A DNA stretch of 64,000 bases. Origin: a virus (taxonomy: Duplodnaviria > Caudoviricetes). Numbering within the stretch: position 1 is the stretch's first letter; every line of letters begins with the position of its first letter. Where the stretch lies: IMG/VR virus record IMGVR_UViG_3300044641_005618; one strand, written 5' to 3'. The translations under genes were made by a program, and so were the position numbers. Of the stretch, positions 1,824 to 51,933 are shown piece by piece. The notes beneath the pieces are model-generated. The model did not search any database and was not told the DNA's origin. It saw nothing but the letters and a program-made list of their open reading frames with translations.

Positions 1824-3347
1824 CTAAAACTGCCCTTGACCCCGAGGCAGTGTCTTTCTAACCTCAACCCCATTGTTAGTGTAACTCACGGTACTCTCTC
1901 CCTTTTTATTCACATTGACTCTCACATTCGTTGCTCCTGATGGTACTCCGGGAATTTTCGTTGTCGGCGAAACACCTTGATTAGTCTGTCCAGCCACGCC
2001 GTCTCTTCTCCGGGACGAGTTGGTTTGCTGCTGATTCACAACTACCGGACGAGTCGATAGAACACTCGCAACGGCACCTAAATTCGAGGTAGTCCCGGAA
2101 ACTGTTTTGCTTGCTACGTCTCTCCCGTCATCAACTTGGTACGAGGGAACTTGTGAAAAGGAAATGTCAACCTTGGCACGTGTTGCAAGGCCAGTCAAGT
2201 CTCTCATTTCCTCCTTCACCTTCACCTCCTTAATAAGGAAGCACCCACCATCAACATCACCATATCTCTTATTATTTGCATAGACCCAATACACGGGTAC
2301 CTTAACGTAGCCGTTTTGCGTGTCCAGTGTGAAACTCAGGAGTTTTTCCAAGTCAGAAACCTTCCCTTCAATGGTCTTCCCCCTTGTGAAACCCTCCACA
2401 AGAGCGTTTGACATACTTAGTTCCCTCATTCCCCGGCTGCCCGATATCACGGGTGGCAGGTTTGTGCCGAAAATTGGAACTCTATCCACCTGAACGGCGG
2501 TTGACCAGGAAATTTCTTCAGGTGCGCAGATAAAGTTCCACACTGAGGACTGTTGTGAATCTTGAGAGAAGGGTTGTCCTACTGTGGAGCTTGTAAGAAT
2601 CTGCGGGATCGTCGATATTGCCTTAAATGCGTCAGGGCTCCCAAACGGAACACCACGAAAGGAACCCGCTAAGTTGGCTTGTTTTGTCAAGTCTCCGAGG
2701 ACAGCTCCAGAGGCACTCTGAAATGCTGCTGAGTAGTCGGCCTTCGGTGTTGGGGGCAATCCCCCTGAAGACGGAACACTTTGCCCTGCAGGTAGAGATG
2801 TTTGAACACCACTCCCACCCCTACCCGACACTTGATCCGTAATTTCCGCCTGGGCTCCAGAAACTGCGGGCTTAATAGAAAACACCACGTCAGCACCGTT
2901 TGTTCCAGGGTTGTAAGCGTACCCTTGGTAGTCTGCGTCTGGCTCGTTTCCTGCCCCTGGAAAGAACTTGGTTGGGCTACTTACTGTTGCCGGGAATAAT
3001 GTACCCAGAAGGTCTCTCGACAAGTTACTAACCGCGTTTCCCGCAAAGTCTTGAACCAACGAACCCAGGGGGCCAAGGGCTTTTGAGTTGACGATAGAAG
3101 CCGTCAAGGACTGGGATATGGCTTGACTACCGGTTGAAATTAGCCCCGGTGTTACTGCCGAGCTCAAAAACGAAGTGAGTGACTGCGGGCTTAACCCTGC
3201 GGTGCTCGCCCACTGGTCTGACAATTTGGGGCTCAAAGCCACTCGGACCGCTGAAGACGCGAGATTATTTATTAAACCCCCTGCAACACCGTTCACAAGG
3301 GAGTTTGAGCTTACTGAGATTGTAGGAATGACTCCGGAAAAGGCCAT
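1824..3347 (-). CDS. Tail tube-like / baseplate-proximal structural protein
   Basis: Central segment (FICAPEEISWSTAVQVDRVPIFG...RELSMSNAL...VKVKEE...RAKVDISF) resembles tube-initiator domains of contractile tails. Start placed at ATG 3347, which overlaps the upstream stop (TAATG). Confidence 0.5.
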   Translation of the reverse strand: MAFSGVIPTISVSSNSLVNGVAGGLINNLASSAVRVALSPKLSDQWASTAGLSPQSLTSFLSSAVTPGLISTGSQAISQSLTASIVNSKALGPLGSLVQDFAGNAVSNLSRDLLGTLFPATVSSPTKFFPGAGNEPDADYQGYAYNPGTNGADVVFSIKPAVSGAQAEITDQVSGRGGSGVQTSLPAGQSVPSSGGLPPTPKADYSAAFQSASGAVLGDLTKQANLAGSFRGVPFGSPDAFKAISTIPQILTSSTVGQPFSQDSQQSSVWNFICAPEEISWSTAVQVDRVPIFGTNLPPVISGSRGMRELSMSNALVEGFTRGKTIEGKVSDLEKLLSFTLDTQNGYVKVPVYWVYANNKRYGDVDGGCFLIKEVKVKEEMRDLTGLATRAKVDISFSQVPSYQVDDGRDVASKTVSGTTSNLGAVASVLSTRPVVVNQQQTNSSRRRDGVAGQTNQGVSPTTKIPGVPSGATNVRVNVNKKGESTVSYTNNGVEVRKTLPRGQGQF

Positions 3348-4018
3348 TATTTCCACCCTTGGCTACGGGTTTTCTTCACGTTAGTGTTCTTCTTATCGTC
3401 CCTCTTCACATCTTTCACAATTTGGGGAATTGCATCCAGAGAGGACTCGTCTAGGCGATATGTGCAAATCCACCCTCGCTCAGTTGGTGCAATCTCAAAG
3501 TTGAAACGGTGACTGTCGTACTGAAAAGTTCCTGCGAACGTTCCGTCGTCTACTTGCAAAAAGTCGTTCGAACTTGATGGGTACTTGCCCTTAGCATCAC
3601 GAATGCTGTTTACCGAGTCCCCGAAAACACTCTCAATAACGCTTGTAAGTACCCTTTCAACTTTTTCAGCAGTTCCCAGGTTATCCTCAACGAAGTCGTC
3701 TGAAATACTCTGAGGGTCGCTTGCGCTATCCCAGAGCTTTTCGGGGGAAATATTCTCTATGGACTCTGCAGACGGCCAGTGATCGGGGTTTACCTTTTGT
3801 AGCAACTCTAAGGTCTCGTCAACTTCTTCAGTACTCAGGTCTTCCACCCCCTCAACCTTAGAGAGTGCAGAGACTAGTGAAACGTCTCCATCGGCGAATT
3901 CGTGGGCAAAGTTATCCAGGTAACCCTGAGGAATGCTTGCAGCATTTCCTCCGCACGCTTCGAGAAGAAGGTGCGCCATTGAACTACAATGGGCGAAGTA
4001 GGATAAGTCGGACTGCAT
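3347..4018 (-). CDS. Hypothetical protein (223 aa, acidic)
   Basis: ORF track; GGGTAAA motif at 4043-4049; stop overlaps the next start. Confidence 0.7.
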   Translation of the reverse strand: MQSDLSYFAHCSSMAHLLLEACGGNAASIPQGYLDNFAHEFADGDVSLVSALSKVEGVEDLSTEEVDETLELLQKVNPDHWPSAESIENISPEKLWDSASDPQSISDDFVEDNLGTAEKVERVLTSVIESVFGDSVNSIRDAKGKYPSSSNDFLQVDDGTFAGTFQYDSHRFNFEIAPTERGWICTYRLDESSLDAIPQIVKDVKRDDKKNTNVKKTRSQGWK

Positions 4019-4060
4019 CCCGGCACAATCATTCTCCCTAGTTTTACCCGTTTTACCGCC

Positions 4061-5062
4061 CTAAAGTCTCGTTGGTGAATCTAAACCCACCTTAGCAAAC
4101 TGAATTAGGGTCTGATCAAAGTGGTCACTCCGAAGGTTAACTCCGGGTTCATTTAAGCATTCTACAAGGTTTTCATACCATGGGGCGTCTTTTTCTATAT
4201 TGTAGTCAAGGTTGGGTTCTGTCAAATCGAATAAGGATTTTGGGCTGCCTGGTGGCAAATTATCTCCCATGTCACCAAATTTAACTTTCCAGTCGGCAAG
4301 ATTTTTGGGGTGGTCTAAGTCGAAACCCATCCTCCATTTAGTATGCTCAATTACACCTGCATTATCTACAAGTCTTGCTTGAATTTTCTCTTTTGGGAAG
4401 GGGACACGAGTGTTTGCGAAATACACTCCAATGTCTTCATCTACAAGTTGAGACCAATCTCTGTCTAGGGTGGATAGCAAAATTTGCCGGTCTCTTACAA
4501 CAGACCCTGGTTCGCTATCTCGAGAAAGCCGATAAACGGCCCCGGCAATATCATCGGCCTCAAAACCTTCCTGAGAGAACACCGGATAGTACTTGTTGAC
4601 GTATTCCCACCCTATGTCAAAGATGCGCCAAAACGTATCTGTCTTGTCCCCCCGAGTACCTTTGTAATTAGTTGGAATTTCTGATATGTTTTTTCCTTTC
4701 TTCTCGGCATATTCTACCCAGGCGGTCTGAACTTCTGTGGACTCTATCATGACCCGGTCGCGCCAGTAGTTCCCTGTGTCTTTGAACCGACTATCCGCAA
4801 CCACGACTATACGGTAGGGGTGCCTCGGGAGCATATCTGGCCCCCGGTTAATTTTTAGGGCCCAACACCCTTTTATCAGTTTGTCCTCTACATCCTTATT
4901 TACAGACCCCTCGACTTTATCTTCGAACCACCGTTTCACGTCGTGTAAATAAACGTGGAAATCAACAACTACGAGTGGGGCGGGGTTACTATCGAGCTTA
5001 AAGTAGGACTCTAATTTTGGTCTTGGCGTTTCACTTTCACTCATATAATTCAGCGGTAGCAC
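4061..5062 (-). CDS. 5'-3' exonuclease / flap endonuclease (T4 RNase H-like)
   Basis: FEN-family acidic motifs VVVDF, YKGTR, FEADDIAG, TLDRDWSQL, GDMGDNLP. Confidence 0.85.
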   Translation of the reverse strand: MLPLNYMSESETPRPKLESYFKLDSNPAPLVVVDFHVYLHDVKRWFEDKVEGSVNKDVEDKLIKGCWALKINRGPDMLPRHPYRIVVVADSRFKDTGNYWRDRVMIESTEVQTAWVEYAEKKGKNISEIPTNYKGTRGDKTDTFWRIFDIGWEYVNKYYPVFSQEGFEADDIAGAVYRLSRDSEPGSVVRDRQILLSTLDRDWSQLVDEDIGVYFANTRVPFPKEKIQARLVDNAGVIEHTKWRMGFDLDHPKNLADWKVKFGDMGDNLPPGSPKSLFDLTEPNLDYNIEKDAPWYENLVECLNEPGVNLRSDHFDQTLIQFAKVGLDSPTRL

Positions 5063-5093
5063 CCTTATTCTAGGTTCTACCGCTATTCGTAAA

Positions 5094-5327
5094 CTATATT
5101 GTTTTCGGCATAGGTAAGTCTATGTAGTATGCCGGAAGGCCAACTTCTTCCTCGGAAAATCGCGAGTCAGATAAACTGTGCCATTCACCTGATTTAAAGA
5201 GCCACACGTCACAATTTGACACTTGAAAGTCCCCACTCCTATCCGAGAATGCGACCCAGTATTCTTTGTCGACCGGGGGGGAATCCTCCGCAATCTTCCA
5301 GAATCCTTTTGCGATTTGATTATTCAT
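5094..5327 (-). CDS. Hypothetical protein (77 aa)
   Basis: ORF overlaps the thyX stop, in operon context. Confidence 0.6.
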   Translation of the reverse strand: MNNQIAKGFWKIAEDSPPVDKEYWVAFSDRSGDFQVSNCDVWLFKSGEWHSLSDSRFSEEEVGLPAYYIDLPMPKTI

Positions 5328-6127
5328 GTTAGGGGTAATTGTGCTCTTAAGATCTCAACTTCGGCCTTTAGTTTCAAAATCTCACGATCCTTCACGTCTT
5401 CAGCGTATAAGGGCTTTTGTGTCTTCTCATCGAACAGAGAGCGATAGATGGTCGGAAACTGTGTTGAGAAGATTGTTCGAACTGCCCGTGCTAGCTCAAC
5501 GTGCTCCCACTGTGCCACACCTTCATCGTCTCTCACTCCGATGTAGTGAATGAAGGAGCGGACGCTTCCCTTCAGGTACATGCGAGTGTAAACCCCTTCT
5601 GGTAACACAAATCGGGCCATCTCTTTTGCGATGCCCTTGTCCAGAAGGTTTGTGTAGGACTGGAGCGCTGCTTTATACGCAAACTCAAACTCAGCCAACA
5701 TAAAGTCTGTGAGGCTGGGGTCCTCGGCTACAAAACTGTTTTGCCGGTTCTTGGTGTCTTGCAACCGCGCCTGTTCAGGCATGTAGAAGAGATCCTTGAA
5801 TGTTGGTAAGTCCTCCGTATGCTTGCGCATCATTTCTTGGTTCTCATACCGCCCCGAAAACTGCTGAAATTTGAACGAACTATGCCTAAGAACCTGAACA
5901 GAAATTGCAAGCGGTGTTACAACTTCCACGGTGAGGTCGGCCTGGTCAAACACGCTCCAGTGGCCCTCTTTCGCACAGTACTTGAGCAGATGCTCAATTT
6001 TAGGGTTGCTCTGGTCTTTGCTCGTTACGCGTGCGATGTATGCTATCAGCTCCTCCCCTTGGGGGGTGGTGCTTACAAGGCGAGATTTGCTGGAGCCTTC
6101 GATGAACCACGGATTGTTATTCTCCAT
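5324..6127 (-). CDS. thyX: FAD-dependent thymidylate synthase
   Basis: IAYIARV, HWSVFDQA, QVLRHSSFKFQQFSGRY (ThyX signature variant), AKEMARFVLP, AQWEH. Confidence 0.95.
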   Translation of the reverse strand: MENNNPWFIEGSSKSRLVSTTPQGEELIAYIARVTSKDQSNPKIEHLLKYCAKEGHWSVFDQADLTVEVVTPLAISVQVLRHSSFKFQQFSGRYENQEMMRKHTEDLPTFKDLFYMPEQARLQDTKNRQNSFVAEDPSLTDFMLAEFEFAYKAALQSYTNLLDKGIAKEMARFVLPEGVYTRMYLKGSVRSFIHYIGVRDDEGVAQWEHVELARAVRTIFSTQFPTIYRSLFDEKTQKPLYAEDVKDREILKLKAEVEILRAQLPLT

Positions 6128-48495: not shown

Positions 48496-51400
48496 TCAGG
48501 ATAGGATGTTGGTGATCATAGCGCCAGAACCAATAAGACCAGTTGCGCCGAGGCCAACTAGGTTAACCACACGTTCAATTGTGATTTCAGCACGAACAAC
48601 GCGGCGTTCACGAATGTAGTATTCGGGACGGACGGCGGGGGTGCCTGTGAGCTGATATGTGTAAGAGAAGGCAGGAGTCGCAGCATTCGCACCACCAGCA
48701 GGCATGATGGAATCAGAAGGACCGTTAGGGCTGTAGAACAGAAGGATACCGTTAGCGGGGAATACCGGCTGTAGGGTTCCATCTTGCGCTAAGTAACGAC
48801 CTTCGGCAACACGTAGGCCACGCTCAAGACCGAAGTAGCGAGCAATGACGTCAGTGTCGACGCTGTCTGCAGATGTGTACTTGATACGATCAAGGATCTT
48901 CTCGTTGGTCAGCAAGAGGTCAAACACGGCAGTACCGACGACTGCGGAGTTTGGACGGATACCGATTTGGTTGGCGACTGCACGCTTGAGGGTTAGGATG
49001 TCTTCAATTGGGTTAGAAGTAGCACCAGACCAGGCGGCGTCTCCAGCAACGGAGCCGTAAGCTGTCTTAAAGTTTGTCCAGGTTGTGAAACCGAGTCCGG
49101 TCTGGGAACCTGCGGTTCCGTTGTAGGGCTCGTAAGGGTTGTAAGTCGCGGTGACGGAAACAGCTTGAGCAACGGTGTACTCGTAGCTGTTCATCAATCT
49201 GGACATTGCATTCCTGGTTTCGATTGCGCGAAGATCTACTTGTGCAGGCAAATTGTTATCGTAAAGGCTCTTTATCCCTTACTTCTTTCTGTTTCCAGAA
49301 AGTTCAGACTATATCTTCACCTTTGCTAAGCAAAGGGCTGGGCGCTCGTGGACGAGTTATTGTTGTCGAAACTCATCGTCTAGTCGTTGAACCTTTTTAC
49401 CACAGAAATCATAGCGATTTCTCGACGTAGTAAACTCGGCTGCTGATTGCCTGTTTCTTTAACGGAAATTCAGGGATCCCAGCAATTCACCCAGTTAATT
49501 TGTGGTTAAGCTGCCACAGCAAGAGCCAAACAACCCTCGCCAGCGTTTTCAATTCAATACTGTTACCGTAAAGGCTCTTTATCCTTTACTTCTTTCTGTT
49601 TCCAGAAAGTTCAGACTATATCTTCACCCTTGTTAGGGTGCTAGGCGCTCTTGTCAGCTTCATCACTGTTCTAGTGGTATGCTGTTAGTCGTTGAACGTT
49701 CTCTCAGTCCCCTGAGAGTTTCGCTGCTGATTGCCTTGTGTTTCAGAGAAGTCACTCCTGAAACCGTCAGGTTTCCCAGCAATTCACCCAGTTTTTCTTT
49801 CAGTTTCTCAACTGATGGAGGCTATTGATTCAACCTCTTCAGGCAATTCCCAGGCGACCACTTCCTGCTCTAGAGCATAAGGCTCAGAGTCGTAGCGGCT
49901 TTGGACGTATGGGATGTTAGTTCCGTAAGCACGACGGAAATCGTTTATAGCAAACTGCTCCTTCCCAAATCTGAGAATTCTCCCAGCGCGGGTAGGGGTG
50001 TCCACAACCGGTGCGATAAACACTTGTTACCGTGAAGGCTCTTTATCCTTCACTTCTTCGCATTTCTGCAAAGATCAGACTATATCATCATCTTCCTTAA
50101 ACTTTTTAACAACGGTTCGCAGAGACTGCCAAGTATTACCTAGACCGGTTAGCCGGAACAGCTTCCTGGCCCCACACTTTTCGTTAGAAACCCAAACTTC
50201 ATGCAATAAACCTAAATTAGACCAAACTTCGACATTAGCCCGAGGGTTTTTAATGCCTGTTCGATCCCGGTCGGGTCTATTAGCGGCTTGCAAGGCGAAT
50301 TGTATAGTTGGTTTACTAAGTGCCTTATCTTTAAGTTTCTGTCTTGATTCTGCACTCCACACTCTGTTCTTGCATAATTCTGCACGAGCGGATCTTTCTT
50401 TATCAGACATTGGAACTTTCCTGGGTCTGGCCTTTCCTTTATTGGATTTGCCAATTTTAAACCTAGTTTCGTCCGAGTGTTTATGATGAGCTAAGGTTTC
50501 GTACACTCTGGAGTTTTTCGAAGACTCCTTGAAAGAGTTTATAGCTTTGCCTAACCTCTTTATGGAAGAGAAAGCTAGAGCCAGTAGGCAGTGAGACAGG
50601 TAGTGCTCTCTGTAGGTGAGTTTGATTAGGTTACCATCTTCATTTCCACCCTTCATGCACTTGGGCACTATATGGTGAATGTGGTGTCCGGGTTCTCGTG
50701 TCAAACTCCTTGGGGGTCTGGAGAGGATAAACTTTATGTACCGTTGGTAGTGTAAGGGAGAGTCGGGCGCTCGTGGAAAGATTATTTCAGGGTTGATCAC
50801 TTTCTAGTCGTTGAACCTTTTTACTTAACACTACTATAGTTAGTAGAGACCCTAAGTAAACTTGGCTGCTGATTGCCTATTTTGCAAAAGCAAAACTAAG
50901 GTATCCCAGCAATTCACCCGATTTTCAATCAGAGTCACCTCTGAGTGGAACCCTATCGATTCGCAATGTTGGTGGACAGTATGTTTTCTCTGCTTACACA
51001 GAGTGTCGGACTATCTTATCGTTTCTTTACAAAACGTTGGGCGCTCTAGCCTGTTATTAAGGGAACTAAATCCCCCAGGTAGTCTCTGAACCTTCTTCCG
51101 GTGTACCGGAAGCTTGGCTGCGGATTGACCCTTTTGCTAAGCAAAAGTAGGCTTTCCCGCAGTTCACCCAATTTCTTTTCCCCTACACCAAAGGGAGCAT
51201 GAAGCCTTGTGCGAGTGTTGTGAGGATTGGCCAGTGTTATCGCAAAAGCTCTTTATCTTTTGCTTCTGTATGTTTCCATACAGGTCAGACTATATCATCA
51301 TCTTTGCTTGAGCAAAGAGTCGGGCGCTCGTGGATTGTTCGCCTGTTCTAGGCTACTTAATCTAGTCGTTGAACCTTGCCCCTATCCCTAGGGGCCTTGG

Positions 51401-51793
51401 CTGCTGATTGCCTATTTTGCAAAAGCAAAACTAAGGTATCCCAGCAATTCACCCGATTTTCAACTTTGTTTGGAAGTTGGGACCCTAATTAATCCACACC
51501 TGCATAAGTTTGTTGTAGCAACTTGTTATCGTAAAGGCTCTTTATCCTTTACTTCTCTACATTTCTGTAAAGTTCAGACTATATCATCATCTTTGCCTGA
51601 GCAAAGAGTCGGGCACTCGTGTCAGCCTCATCACTGTTCTAGTGGTACGCTGTTAGTCGTTGAACCTTGCCCCTATCCCTAGGGGCCTTGGCTGCTGATT
51701 GCCTATTTTGCAAAAGCAAAACTAAGGTGTCCCAGCAATTCACCCGATTTTCAATCAGAGTCACCTCTGAGTGGAACCTTTATGATTCATCAT
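48496..51793 (-). CDS. Major capsid protein, split by six group I introns (7 exons, 351 aa spliced)
   Basis: Exons 51793-51785, 51518-51492, 51230-51192, 50976-50959, 50020-49833, 49554-49533 and 49248-48496 total 1056 nt and read MMNLQQTYAGVDPILTTLAQGFMLPSTNIANFIAPVVDTPTRAGRILRFGKEQF...ELPEEVIENAGEGPAQVDLRAIE... The gene follows the protease and decoration genes. Confidence 0.9.
49249..49532 (-). mobile_element. Group I intron 6 of capsid gene (284 nt, no ORF)
   Basis: P AATTGCTGGGA, Q AATCAGCAGC, R TTCAACGACTA, S GATATAGTCT; P3 CUGGGUG/CGCCCAG; P1 GAGGGU with GCUCUU; ends in G. Confidence 0.9.
49555..49832 (-). mobile_element. Group I intron 5 of capsid gene (278 nt, no ORF, phase 2)
   Basis: P/Q/R/S present; P1 GAGGU with GCCUC; P10 UCAAU with exon AUUGA; ends in G. 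Confidence 0.9.
50021..50958 (-). mobile_element. Group I intron 4 of capsid gene (938 nt) carrying a homing endonuclease
   Basis: P/Q/R/S present; P1 GAAU with GUUC; 7-bp P10 CGAUAGG with exon UUUAUCG; ends in G. Confidence 0.92.
50075..50800 (-). CDS. Intron-encoded HNH homing endonuclease with NUMOD3-like repeats
   Basis: HIHHIVPKCMKGGNEDGNLIKLTYREHYLSH motif, then HSDETRFKIG and WSAESRQKL repeats. Confidence 0.88.
   Translation of the reverse strand: MINPEIIFPRAPDSPLHYQRYIKFILSRPPRSLTREPGHHIHHIVPKCMKGGNEDGNLIKLTYREHYLSHCLLALAFSSIKRLGKAINSFKESSKNSRVYETLAHHKHSDETRFKIGKSNKGKARPRKVPMSDKERSARAELCKNRVWSAESRQKLKDKALSKPTIQFALQAANRPDRDRTGIKNPRANVEVWSNLGLLHEVWVSNEKCGARKLFRLTGLGNTWQSLRTVVKKFKEDDDIV
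50977..51191 (-). mobile_element. Group I intron 3 of capsid gene (215 nt, divergent)
   Basis: P AACTGCGGGAA, Q AATCCGCAGC, R TTCAGAGACTA, S AAGATAGTCC; P3 UUGGGUG/CGCCCAA; P1 UCCCU with GGGGA; P10 UUGGUG with exon CACCAA. Confidence 0.9.
51231..51491 (-). mobile_element. Group I intron 2 of capsid gene (261 nt, no ORF)
   Basis: P/Q/R/S present; P3 UCGGGUG/CGCCCGA; P1 GGAU with GUCC; ends in G. Confidence 0.9.
51519..51784 (-). mobile_element. Group I intron 1 of capsid gene (266 nt, no ORF)
   Basis: P/Q/R/S present; P1 GAAU with GUUC. The 3' splice site could alternatively be 3 nt upstream (51522), adding one Leu. Confidence 0.88.
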
Positions 51794-51881
51794 AATAGAT
51801 GTTTCCTTGTGTGTAAAGTTGACTTCAAAGATTGCCGAAGCAATCTGACCCGCGAGTCCGAAAACTTTGGGGTCACTGTAG

Positions 51882-51901: not shown

Positions 51902-51933
51902 AAAAAAGCCCCCAACTCGAAAGTTGAAGGCTC
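51902..51933 (-). terminator. Rho-independent terminator between decoration and capsid genes
   Basis: Minus strand AGCCTTCAACT-TTCG-AGTTGGGGGCT followed by a T run. Confidence 0.8.

Follow-up and report, generated by a model that had tools for sequence, protein, structure and literature searches.

A predicted major capsid gene on the minus strand of the window (the whole 64,000-nt stretch of viral DNA analyzed) is split by six group I introns into seven exons, including four of 9 to 39 nt (Table 1). Introns 1 and 4 are paralogues. We consider it probable that the gene gives a seven-exon mRNA and that the complementarity of the intron 1 5' end to the first bases of exon 5 is a relic rather than a device for exon skipping.

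The Rfam covariance model RF00028 (gathering score, 50 bits) gave six matches on the minus strand, which scored 66 to 103.2 bits over the full model length. When joined, the seven exons amount to 1056 nt, and their translation is identical to P0002, a 351-aa protein on record from public assemblies. The lengths of 27, 39, and 18 nt that an earlier note on this DNA had given for exons 2, 3, and 4 were upheld, and so was the phase 0 position of introns 1 to 4. Intron 6 is likewise in phase 0 and intron 5 is in phase 2. The last base is U in each of the six 5' exons and G in each intron, and the P1 helices have 4 to 10 bp; local folding reproduced the P1 hairpins of introns 2 and 4. The introns are presumably self-splicing members of group I. 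A sigma-70-like match at 51817-51789, which runs over the start codon, was attributed to chance.

Table 1. Exons, introns, and sequence elements of the capsid gene, with positions in the window
Feature	Position	Strand	Description
Exon 1	51785..51793	(-)	9 nt, MMN, 3' end GAAU; exon 1-exon 2 junction in RNA contigs
Intron 1	51519..51784	(-)	266 nt, phase 0, without ORF; RF00028 89.2 bits; mosaic of introns 4, 2, and 5
Intron 1 loop/guide AUAAA (+2 to +6)	51779..51783	(-)	complements exon 5 start UUUAU; also start-codon UUAU(G)
Intron 1 internal guide GGUUC	51774..51778	(-)	P1 with GAAU/C
Exon 2	51492..51518	(-)	27 nt, LQQTYAGVD
Intron 2	51231..51491	(-)	group I, 261 nt, phase 0; RF00028 97.1 bits
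Exon 3	51192..51230	(-)	39 nt, PILTTLAQGFMLP
Intron 3	50977..51191	(-)	group I, 215 nt, phase 0; RF00028 66 bits; most divergent of the six
Exon 4	50959..50976	(-)	18 nt, STNIAN, 3' end GAAU
Intron 4	50021..50958	(-)	group I, 938 nt, phase 0; RF00028 72.2 bits; guide CGAUAGG + GGUUC
Intron 4 ORF	50075..50800	(-)	241 aa, predicted HNH-type homing endonuclease with NUMOD3 motif; both ends inside ribozyme core sequence
Exon 5	49833..50020	(-)	188 nt, 5' end UUUAUCG
Intron 5	49555..49832	(-)	group I, 278 nt, phase 2; RF00028 103.2 bits
Exon 6	49533..49554	(-)	22 nt, completes V, encodes IENAGEG
Intron 6	49249..49532	(-)	group I, 284 nt, phase 0; P10 1 bp; RF00028 85.3 bits
Exon 7	48496..49248	(-)	753 nt with stop codon; body of the predicted capsid protein

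We then analyzed the encoded proteins by profile searches. Exon 7 matched Phage_cap_E (1.4e-10) and phrog_1005 (1.3e-31), the PF03864 match reaching 41 bits. The phrog_1005 profile is collinear with the exons: its positions 101-305 correspond to exon 7 and 33-96 to exon 5, and positions 1-32 remain for the 31 residues of exons 1-4. These matches point to a major capsid protein of the lambda gpE type (PF03864/phrog_1005). Its N terminus, MMNL..TYAGVDPILTTLAQGFMLP.TNIANFIAPVV, is common to intron-free relatives, and 23 homologues, the most distant of them 74% identical, show no variation at residues 1-4 and at most of residues 11-42. An AlphaFold model of P0002, built with 23 close homologues, had a mean pLDDT of 46, with residues 1-123 below 50; residues 1-31 were not placeable and the model was left unused. 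The intron 4 ORF matched phrog_655 (1.3e-22), the HNH family phrog_12434 (1.2e-6), and NUMOD3 (2.6e-4), and contains the motif HHIVPK...GG..DGN......EH, and it is predicted to encode an intron-borne HNH homing endonuclease. Database entries for the capsid family are mostly truncated ORFs that start at intron ends. Gene callers fragment the gene, and the seven-exon arrangement provides a correct model for it. When the locus was compared by megablast with 50,697 phage records, the only matches were short ones to intron cores, in two unrelated records.

To follow splicing, we used the assembled contigs of three lake metatranscriptomes (runs X15, X16, and X20), with one DNA run (X1) for comparison; intron stretches without cover in the RNA runs were left out of the evidence. 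Contigs of the three RNA runs carried the joints E1-E2, E2-E3, E3-E4-E5, and E5-E6-E7. Exon 4 accounts for 17 letters flanked by the joints to exons 5 and 3, and one RNA contig has a synonymous variant of exon 6 flanked by the joints to exons 5 and 7. Intron-free DNA alleles occur naturally, so a joined contig alone is insufficient to establish RNA splicing, and the case rests on the ratio of exon to intron depth and on the joints being missing from the DNA run. The depth in X16 was 510 at each of E1-E2, E2-E3, and E3-E4-E5 and ∼20 to 120 over introns; X1 showed no such exon joints and covered all introns at ∼100 to 130. The introns are thus removed exactly at the RNA level, and the frame is restored. 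The exon 7 sequences of the RNA strains are ∼2% different from that of the window, and we therefore infer the splicing of the exact window allele.

The earlier note had proposed that splicing from exon 1 to exon 5 could yield N-terminal capsid isoforms, and this proposal was not borne out. The RNA contigs contained canonical joints only, with no exon 1-exon 5 joint in the contigs of X15, X16, and X20; none of the 142 predicted proteins of the capsid family starts with MMNF; and the introns at sites 1 and 4 each occur alone in relatives (see below). Assembled contigs lose rare variants and would therefore not reveal skipping at levels up to a few per cent. Exact-pattern scans for exon 1 followed by 0-30 nt and exon 5 gave 0 matches in JGI metagenome contigs and IMG/VR. 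A positive control with a gap of 54-84 nt, meant to detect genes that are intron-free or completely joined, likewise gave 0, and the scans therefore carry no weight for or against skipping. In principle exon skipping could occur, but the available RNA data do not support it. At the protein level, the N-terminal peptides of the capsid protein would begin with MMNLQQTYAGVD..., and MMNFIAPVV... would mark the exon 1-exon 5 product.

Several unusual joints in the RNA contigs were considered and rejected as skipping products. Two joints in X16 (50020 to 51523, and 51594 back to 50802; depth, 22.9) resemble a chimera of intron 1 and exon 5, but intron sequence flanks both sides; they fit a strain with an endonuclease-free site-4 intron that has an intron-1-like 3' part, as in the relative L021. 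For the joints 49194 to 51270, 49233 to 51609, and 48653 to 50037, the simplest account is that of variant introns or chimeras of assembly.

We next examined the pairings that led to the proposal. The 5' ends of introns 1 and 4 read CAUAAAGGUUCC and CGAUAGGGUUCC, respectively, and GGUUC of intron 1 pairs with GAAU of exon 1 plus C+1 of the intron. The AUAAA segment of intron 1 makes 2 contiguous pairs with its own exon 2 (CUA...) and 5 with the start of exon 5 (UUUAU), as the earlier note had stated, except that the 5 pairs require one unpaired guide base and fall to 3 in strict register. Intron 4 itself forms a 7-bp P10 with exon 5. In the precursor of 3335 nt, UUU[AG]U is present at only four places, one of them precisely nt 1 of exon 5, and the chance of the exon 5 match is ∼0.012 for intron 1 and ∼0.07 over the six introns. 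The P10 pairs formed by introns 1 to 6 with their own exons number 2, 2, 5 of 6, 7, 5, and 1 (in part a hand check). A weak P10 is normal in this capsid gene, since introns 2 and 6 have only 2 and 1 bp, and the canonical E2-E3 and E6-E7 joints are present in RNA contigs despite this. Accurate splicing with a P10 of 1 to 2 bp beside exons of 9 to 39 nt indicates that these ribozymes need little exon context. The short exons had also been thought to force adjacent P10 and P1 helices to share nucleotides, and hence to impose an order of splicing. This does not hold: in exon 4, the P10 of intron 3 occupies nt 1-6 and the P1 of intron 4 occupies nt 15-18, and exons 2, 3, and 6 have more spare room between the two helices than exon 4. 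As no exon nucleotide is common to neighboring helices, a forced splicing order is unsupported. The JGI contigs L013-L016, which may stem from either DNA or RNA, were excluded from the evidence on splicing order.

Could exon 1 nevertheless be joined to exon 5 at a low level, as splicing noise? The product would be in frame, given that exons 2-4 sum to 84 nt (which confirms the earlier claim that skipping keeps the frame), and the resulting capsid protein without residues 4-31 would probably be useless to the phage. Either a chimeric ribozyme made of the first ∼90 nt of intron 1 and the rest of intron 4, or pairing of the intron 4 GGUUC with the GAAU of exon 1 instead of that of exon 4, might produce it. 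Introns 1 and 4 have the same guide and are near-identical over nt 9-90, the P10 between AUAAA and exon 5 would be 5 bp, and the tandem group I introns of phage Twort yield transcripts minus one exon (PMC3073962). However, neither the three RNA runs nor the 142 family members showed such a product, and transcription of the 3' half of intron 1 ∼1.1-1.5 kb ahead of that of intron 4 would give cis folding a long head start. Moreover, GAAU occurs 17 times in the precursor, and the choice of the 5' splice site must therefore depend on the local hairpin. We regard skipping by noise as unlikely.

Comparison of the introns with each other shows that introns 1 and 4 are paralogues, inserted at sites that share only the 4-nt GAAU. 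Both use the guide GGUUC, both follow this 5'-exon end, and their nt 9-60 are 98% identical; their sites lie 84 coding nt apart, with flank identities of 6/9 upstream and 2/9 downstream. The description of intron 1 as a near-twin of intron 4 applies to nt 1-90 (87-100% identical), and elsewhere intron 1 is a mosaic with introns 2 and 5: nt 31-120 and 181-210 are 97-100% and 97% identical, respectively, to intron 2, and intron 5 is matched at 97% identity by nt 121-150. Within one genome, introns 1 and 4 show a similarity of 0.98 in the window and 0.94 in L021, and site-1 orthologues across genomes show 0.90. The site-1 intron of relatives encodes its own HNH endonuclease (222 aa), and because this is only 39% identical to the site-4 endonuclease, the duplication is old. 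The proposal that intron 1 is a transposed copy of intron 4 thus stands as far as paralogy at two sites is concerned; the direction from 4 to 1 is suggested only by the P10 match to exon 5, which is best read as a relic of shared ancestry. The restriction of the common sequence to the guide-paired nucleotides is the pattern expected of spread by guide pairing (reverse splicing), and ectopic endonuclease homing would be an equally good route.

We then looked at the occupancy of the two sites in relatives. The L020 contig (68.7 kb, DNA) contains the site-1 intron only, L018 (75.6 kb, DNA) has introns at sites 2 and 4 only, and L021 (282 kb, DNA) has eight introns; the site-1 intron occurs without the site-4 intron in L020 and possibly in L013, L014, and L016, and the site-1 intron of L016 has an intron-4-type P9 region. 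The site-1 and site-4 introns are thus present or absent independently. The site-1 guides vary among relatives (CAUAAAGG, CAUGAAGG, and CGAGAUGG). In L021, the site-1 AUGAA retains the exon 5 match with 5 bp, one of them G-U.

These data bear on programmed skipping, in which AUAAA would have been selected to guide exon 1 onto exon 5 for the production of N-terminal capsid isoforms. The phase 0 position of introns 1-4, an exon 5 match rarer than chance, and its retention in L021 would be in line with such selection. Yet the site-1 intron occurs in genomes that have no 3' splice site before exon 5, because they lack the site-4 intron, and the site-1 guide of L020 has lost the exon 5 match. Residues 4-31 are among the most conserved of the protein, and the skipped product was found neither in the three RNA runs nor among the 142 proteins. 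Phase 0 would also be explained by insertion after a third-position U (AAU, GAU, CCU, AAU, and GGU), with no need for selection to keep the frame. We therefore give programmed skipping very little credence. It is also highly improbable that introns 1 and 4 cross-fold or swap 5' splice sites in vivo to give a reproducible exon 1-exon 5 mRNA and a shortened capsid protein, missing residues 4-31, that enters the head or regulates it. Such an event would make a phage structural gene a natural case of ribozyme-driven alternative splicing. The match itself, with p of about 0.01-0.07 and its conservation in L021, is compatible with some selection.

The intron 1 loop may have been shaped by another pairing. 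CAUAA could form a hairpin with UUAUG of the start region, which would hide the start codon and the 5' splice site on unspliced RNA and, if real, would tie translation initiation to the removal of intron 1. A 62-nt fold has a 6-bp UUAUGA/UCAUAA stem extended by bases on the Shine-Dalgarno side, with -15.9 kcal/mol and z = -2.34 (4 of 200 shuffles were as good), and the equivalent region of intron 4 folds into P1 plus P2 instead. By a hand check, CAUGA of L021 can still form 5 pairs with UUAUG, a G-U pair among them. Against this, the stem is weak and A/U-rich, shows no covariation, and is not kept by the site-1 intron of L020 (CGAGAU). We consider this reading quite improbable. The local preference of the intron 1 5' end for the start-codon-region hairpin over P1, a competition that would favor skipping by noise, may slow intron 1 and allow the chimeric fold.

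We thus favor the reading in which six group I introns would have invaded the phage major capsid gene, with the seven-exon mRNA and its 351-aa capsid protein as the visible product. The common guide GGUUC of introns 1 and 4 would recognize GAAU at both sites. Gene conversion would keep moving sequence between these two introns and between them and the others, and would account for the mosaic make-up of intron 1 in the window and for its lack of an endonuclease gene. The 5-bp pairing of AUAAA with exon 5 would go back to an ancestor like intron 4, with a loop that forms 7 bp with exon 5. Intron 1 would join exon 2 with almost no P10, like introns 2 and 6 at their own sites, and the terminal G plus the local fold would set the 3' splice site.

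Group I introns that resemble one another have already been reported to cause exon skipping in Staphylococcus phage Twort: orf142 contains three of them and gives transcripts from which one exon is missing (Landthaler and Shub 1999, via review PMC3073962). As in orf142, several similar, related self-splicing introns lie close together here, between short exons of one phage gene, and the same route to skipping has been proposed. Unlike orf142, the gene studied here is a major capsid gene with six introns (eight in L021) and exons down to 9 nt, and the RNA contigs contained no skipped transcripts. Skipping, if real, would mean that self-splicing ribozymes generate protein isoforms in a bacterial virus, a rare occurrence; the evidence points elsewhere. 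In crAss-like phages (Zeta and Delta groups) and Jug phages, core genes including the capsid gene are split by group I introns, often with HNH endonucleases, and splicing in Jug phages was confirmed by metatranscriptome reads (PMC7886860, PMC12880540). The published crAss capsid gene is in five fragments, whereas the gene of this lake-water phage lineage has seven to nine exons, with micro-exons of 9-39 nt and a paralogous intron pair with one guide sequence. The capsid gene of Faustovirus E12 is also cut into many exons (13 published, the shortest of 13 bp) and has group I introns and intron-borne endonucleases (PMC6247863), but this is the gene of a eukaryotic giant virus; its endonucleases are of the GIY-YIG type and its introns are long (mean, 1273 bp), in contrast to the compact bacterial/phage-type group I introns described here.

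In rDNA, the presence of related group I introns at heterologous sites has been read as circumstantial support for reverse splicing as a means of spread (PMC1299323; review PMC3984707). These rDNA introns resemble introns 1 and 4 as paralogues at two sites that share only the guide-paired bases, here GAAU, and differ in that both sites here lie in one phage protein gene, 84 coding nt apart, each intron has (or had) a diverged HNH endonuclease, and gene conversion would be ongoing. In this natural population, every intron site is occupied in some genomes and empty in others, with one paralogous pair that has a common guide and a 4-nt target. This variation makes the mode of intron spread, by guide-directed reverse splicing or by sloppy endonuclease homing, approachable by genome comparison.

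The locus, a major capsid gene, belongs to a large phage of lake-water metagenomes: up to 96% of the locus's sampled words are present in DNA runs labelled lake water, and scaffolds of relatives reach 282 kb. In a profile search, the last exon matched Phage_cap_E and positions 101 to 305 of phrog_1005, and exon 5 matched positions 33 to 96 of the latter, which leaves positions 1 to 32 for the preceding coding sequence. An Rfam scan of the whole 64-kb window found six full-length group I introns within 51798-49285 (66 to 103 bits; gathering score, 50 bits) and no other match. Searching with the last exon retrieved 351-aa proteins starting MMN-LQQTYAGVD-PILTTLAQGFMLP-STNIAN-FIAPVV, and placing their N-terminal pieces on the DNA yielded seven exons (see the table), which join into 1056 nt with a translation identical to the public capsid protein P0002. 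The exon sizes and the phase 0 of introns 1 to 4 reported in the earlier note are therefore correct; intron 6 is also in phase 0 and intron 5 in phase 2. All six introns are preceded by U and end in G, and in each of the five phase-0 cases this required U occupies a synonymous third codon position (AAU, GAU, CCU, AAU, and GGU; 48496-51793, minus strand). Insertion after a third-position U would simply explain the phase-0 bias, which is thus no evidence of a frame-keeping design.

Coordinates of the capsid gene exons and associated features (in the window unless another locus is named)
Feature	Coordinates	Strand	Size or remark
Exon 1	51793-51785	-	9 nt
Exon 2	51518-51492	-	27 nt
Exon 3	51230-51192	-	39 nt
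Exon 4	50976-50959	-	18 nt
Exon 5	50020-49833	-	188 nt
Exon 6	49554-49533	-	22 nt
Exon 7	49248-48496	-	753 nt
Intron 4 endonuclease ORF	50075-50800	-	241 aa
Start-codon hairpin	51768-51806	-	start-codon region and first bases of intron 1, extended to the Shine-Dalgarno side
Upstream hairpin	51902-51932	-	11 bp, G+C rich, UUCG loop, then T-run
Site-1 HNH endonuclease gene	L013:241-909		222 aa
Site-1 HNH endonuclease gene	L020:3267-3935		222 aa
L021 capsid gene (ENA metagenome scaffold, 282,163 bp)	2780-5925		eight RF00028 matches

We then looked into the guide sequences. Introns 1 and 4 begin with CAUAAAGGUUCC and CGAUAGGGUUCC, respectively; each uses GGUUC to pair with the terminal GAAU of the exon and the intron's own first base. 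Computed pair counts between the 5' flanking bases of the guide and the next exon, supplemented by hand checks, gave own P10 helices of 2 pairs for intron 1, 2 contiguous pairs for intron 2 (5 with a one-base bulge), 5/6 for intron 3, 7 for intron 4, 5 for intron 5, and 1 for intron 6. Intron 1 makes a P10-type match of 5 pairs with exon 5 if one guide base is left unpaired, and of 3 in strict register. Since the 3335-nt precursor contains UUU[AG]U just four times, once precisely at nt 1 of exon 5, chance alone is an unlikely cause of the match (about 0.012 for intron 1, roughly 0.07 allowing for six introns).

The earlier note had read this match as a sign that exon 1 could skip to exon 5 and produce capsid isoforms starting MMNFIAPVV. 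Contigs from three metatranscriptome runs and one DNA run, aligned to the locus, do not bear this out. The RNA runs contained the joints E1-E2, E2-E3, E3-E4-E5 (with exon 4 seen as letters between two joints), and E5-E6-E7, none of which was present in the DNA run. In the lake metatranscriptome run X16, the first three had a depth of 510 each and the introns about 20 to 120, while cover of exons and introns in the DNA run was even, at about 100 to 130. The joint 50020 to 51785 (exon 1-exon 5) was absent from the contigs of all four runs, which, as contigs, lose rare variants. No MMNF start occurred among 142 proteins of the capsid family (the best 120 matches plus members of ten clusters), and the 31 N-terminal residues were present in all full-length family proteins. 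Exact-pattern scans for the skipped joint found no match and were uninformative, as the positive control likewise gave zero. An X16 contig joining exon 5 to intron-1-like sequence was rejected as a skipped mRNA because intron sequence lies to either side; it agrees with a strain carrying a short site-4 intron with an intron-1-like 3' part, the arrangement seen in the 282-kb DNA scaffold L021.

Each intron site is full in some related contigs and empty in others. The IMG/VR relative G001 has sites 1 to 4 as in the window plus two others, after residues 106 and 299; L021 has eight introns and one 15-nt exon, a 75.6-kb scaffold (L018) only sites 2 and 4, and a 68.7-kb contig (L020) only site 1. 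Introns 1 and 4 thus work without each other, and L020 offers no 3' splice site ahead of exon 5 as a skipping target. In L021, residues ~91 and 95 enclose a second intron, and another intron, which bears an endonuclease and follows residue 106, leaves the 15-nt exon, residues 102 to 106. Four further contigs, L013 to L016 (JGI samples 3300012708, 3300012752, 3300012717, and 3300012729, respectively), have exons 4-5-6-7 joined, intron 3 kept, and introns 1 and 2 variably kept; they represent either DNA alleles or RNA caught midway through splicing, with the most divergent intron, intron 3, being removed most slowly.

We propose that each intron folds locally during transcription and then splices onto the following exon, with the terminal G and the 3' structure of the intron itself defining the 3' splice site. 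P10 would be dispensable, as the weak own P10 of introns 2 and 6 shows. A cross-fold of the 5' part of intron 1 with the 3' part of intron 4 is chemically feasible, and its product would be in frame, but the own 3' half of intron 1 is transcribed more than 1 kb earlier. Moreover, residues 1 to 4 and most of 11 to 42 are invariant in 23 homologues (down to 74% identity), so the skipped product would miss a strongly conserved N-terminal part. We consider skipping at a detectable noise level unlikely and programmed capsid isoforms made by skipping highly improbable. Nor is a splicing order forced by helices sharing nucleotides supported: no exon nucleotide is required by two helices simultaneously, and in exon 4 nt 1 to 6 form the P10 of intron 3 and nt 15 to 18 the P1 of intron 4. 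Overall, the earlier observation is partly confirmed, and of its interpretation paralogy is supported, while skipping and forced order are not.

The complementarity between AUAAA and exon 5 is instead probably a relic of descent from an intron-4-like ancestor, which favours, without proving, the view that the lineage occupied site 4 before site 1. Among relatives, the site-1 guide loop varies (CAUAAAGG, CAUGAAGG, and CGAGAUGG), while site 4 keeps CGAUAGGG or CGAUAAGG. As a weak possibility, pairing with the start-codon region might have shaped the intron 1 loop, since local folding favours a UUAUGA/UCAUAA hairpin over P1 (-15.9 kcal/mol, z = -2.34); the equivalent region of intron 4 folds as P1 plus P2. 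This start-codon hairpin would compete with P1.

Sites 1 and 4 share GAAU, with 6/9 bases alike upstream and just 2/9 downstream, as expected if guide pairing chose the new site in reverse splicing (reviewed in PMC3984707 and PMC1299323); alternatively, a sloppy endonuclease may have carried the intron to the second site. Similarity between introns 1 and 4 of one genome (0.98 in the window; 0.94 in L021) exceeds that between site-1 orthologues of different genomes (0.90), and the L016 site-1 intron carries an intron-4-type P9 region, a case of concerted evolution by gene conversion. The "near-twin" likeness of intron 1 to intron 4 holds for nt 1 to 90 only. Judged by segment identities, intron 1 is a mosaic: nt 31 to 120 match intron 2 at 97 to 100% identity, nt 121 to 150 match intron 5 at 97%, and nt 181 to 210 match intron 2 at 97%.

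Intron 4 (938 nt) holds an HNH/NUMOD3 homing endonuclease ORF. It starts between P7 and P3', passes P3' and P8, and has its stop codon inside the conserved core segment ...AUAGUCUGA, so coding and catalytic RNA sequence overlap at both ends. The site-1 intron has its own HNH endonuclease gene in G001, L013, and L020, and the G001/L013 protein (222 aa) is 39% identical to that of intron 4, which makes introns 1 and 4 old paralogues; ribozyme core sequence encodes the first 14 residues (MINPEIIFPRAPDS), which for that reason are the same in the two proteins. Intron 1 of the window has no such gene and is a copy that lost it. Shared guide and related endonucleases bear out the paralogy behind the proposed transposition of intron 4; its direction, 4 to 1, is suggested by the match to exon 5.

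Capsid and other core genes rich in introns have been described from crAss-like and Jug phages (PMC7886860, PMC12880540) and from Faustovirus (PMC6247863), and PMC3073962, citing Landthaler and Shub (1999), reports exon skipping among three similar group I introns in phage Twort. The present locus represents, in dense form, a kind of intron-rich gene already known, to which it adds a paralogous intron pair and population-level presence/absence at every site. Many database "proteins" of the family are truncated ORFs whose start lies in the last codons of an intron (MFIAPVV, MLQQTY, MPILTT, and MIENAGEG). Directly after the upstream 157-aa gene, we read by eye a hairpin that looks like an intrinsic terminator, although absent from the scan tool's list. 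The RNA-derived contigs L010 to L012 start only 20 to 30 nt upstream of the capsid start codon.
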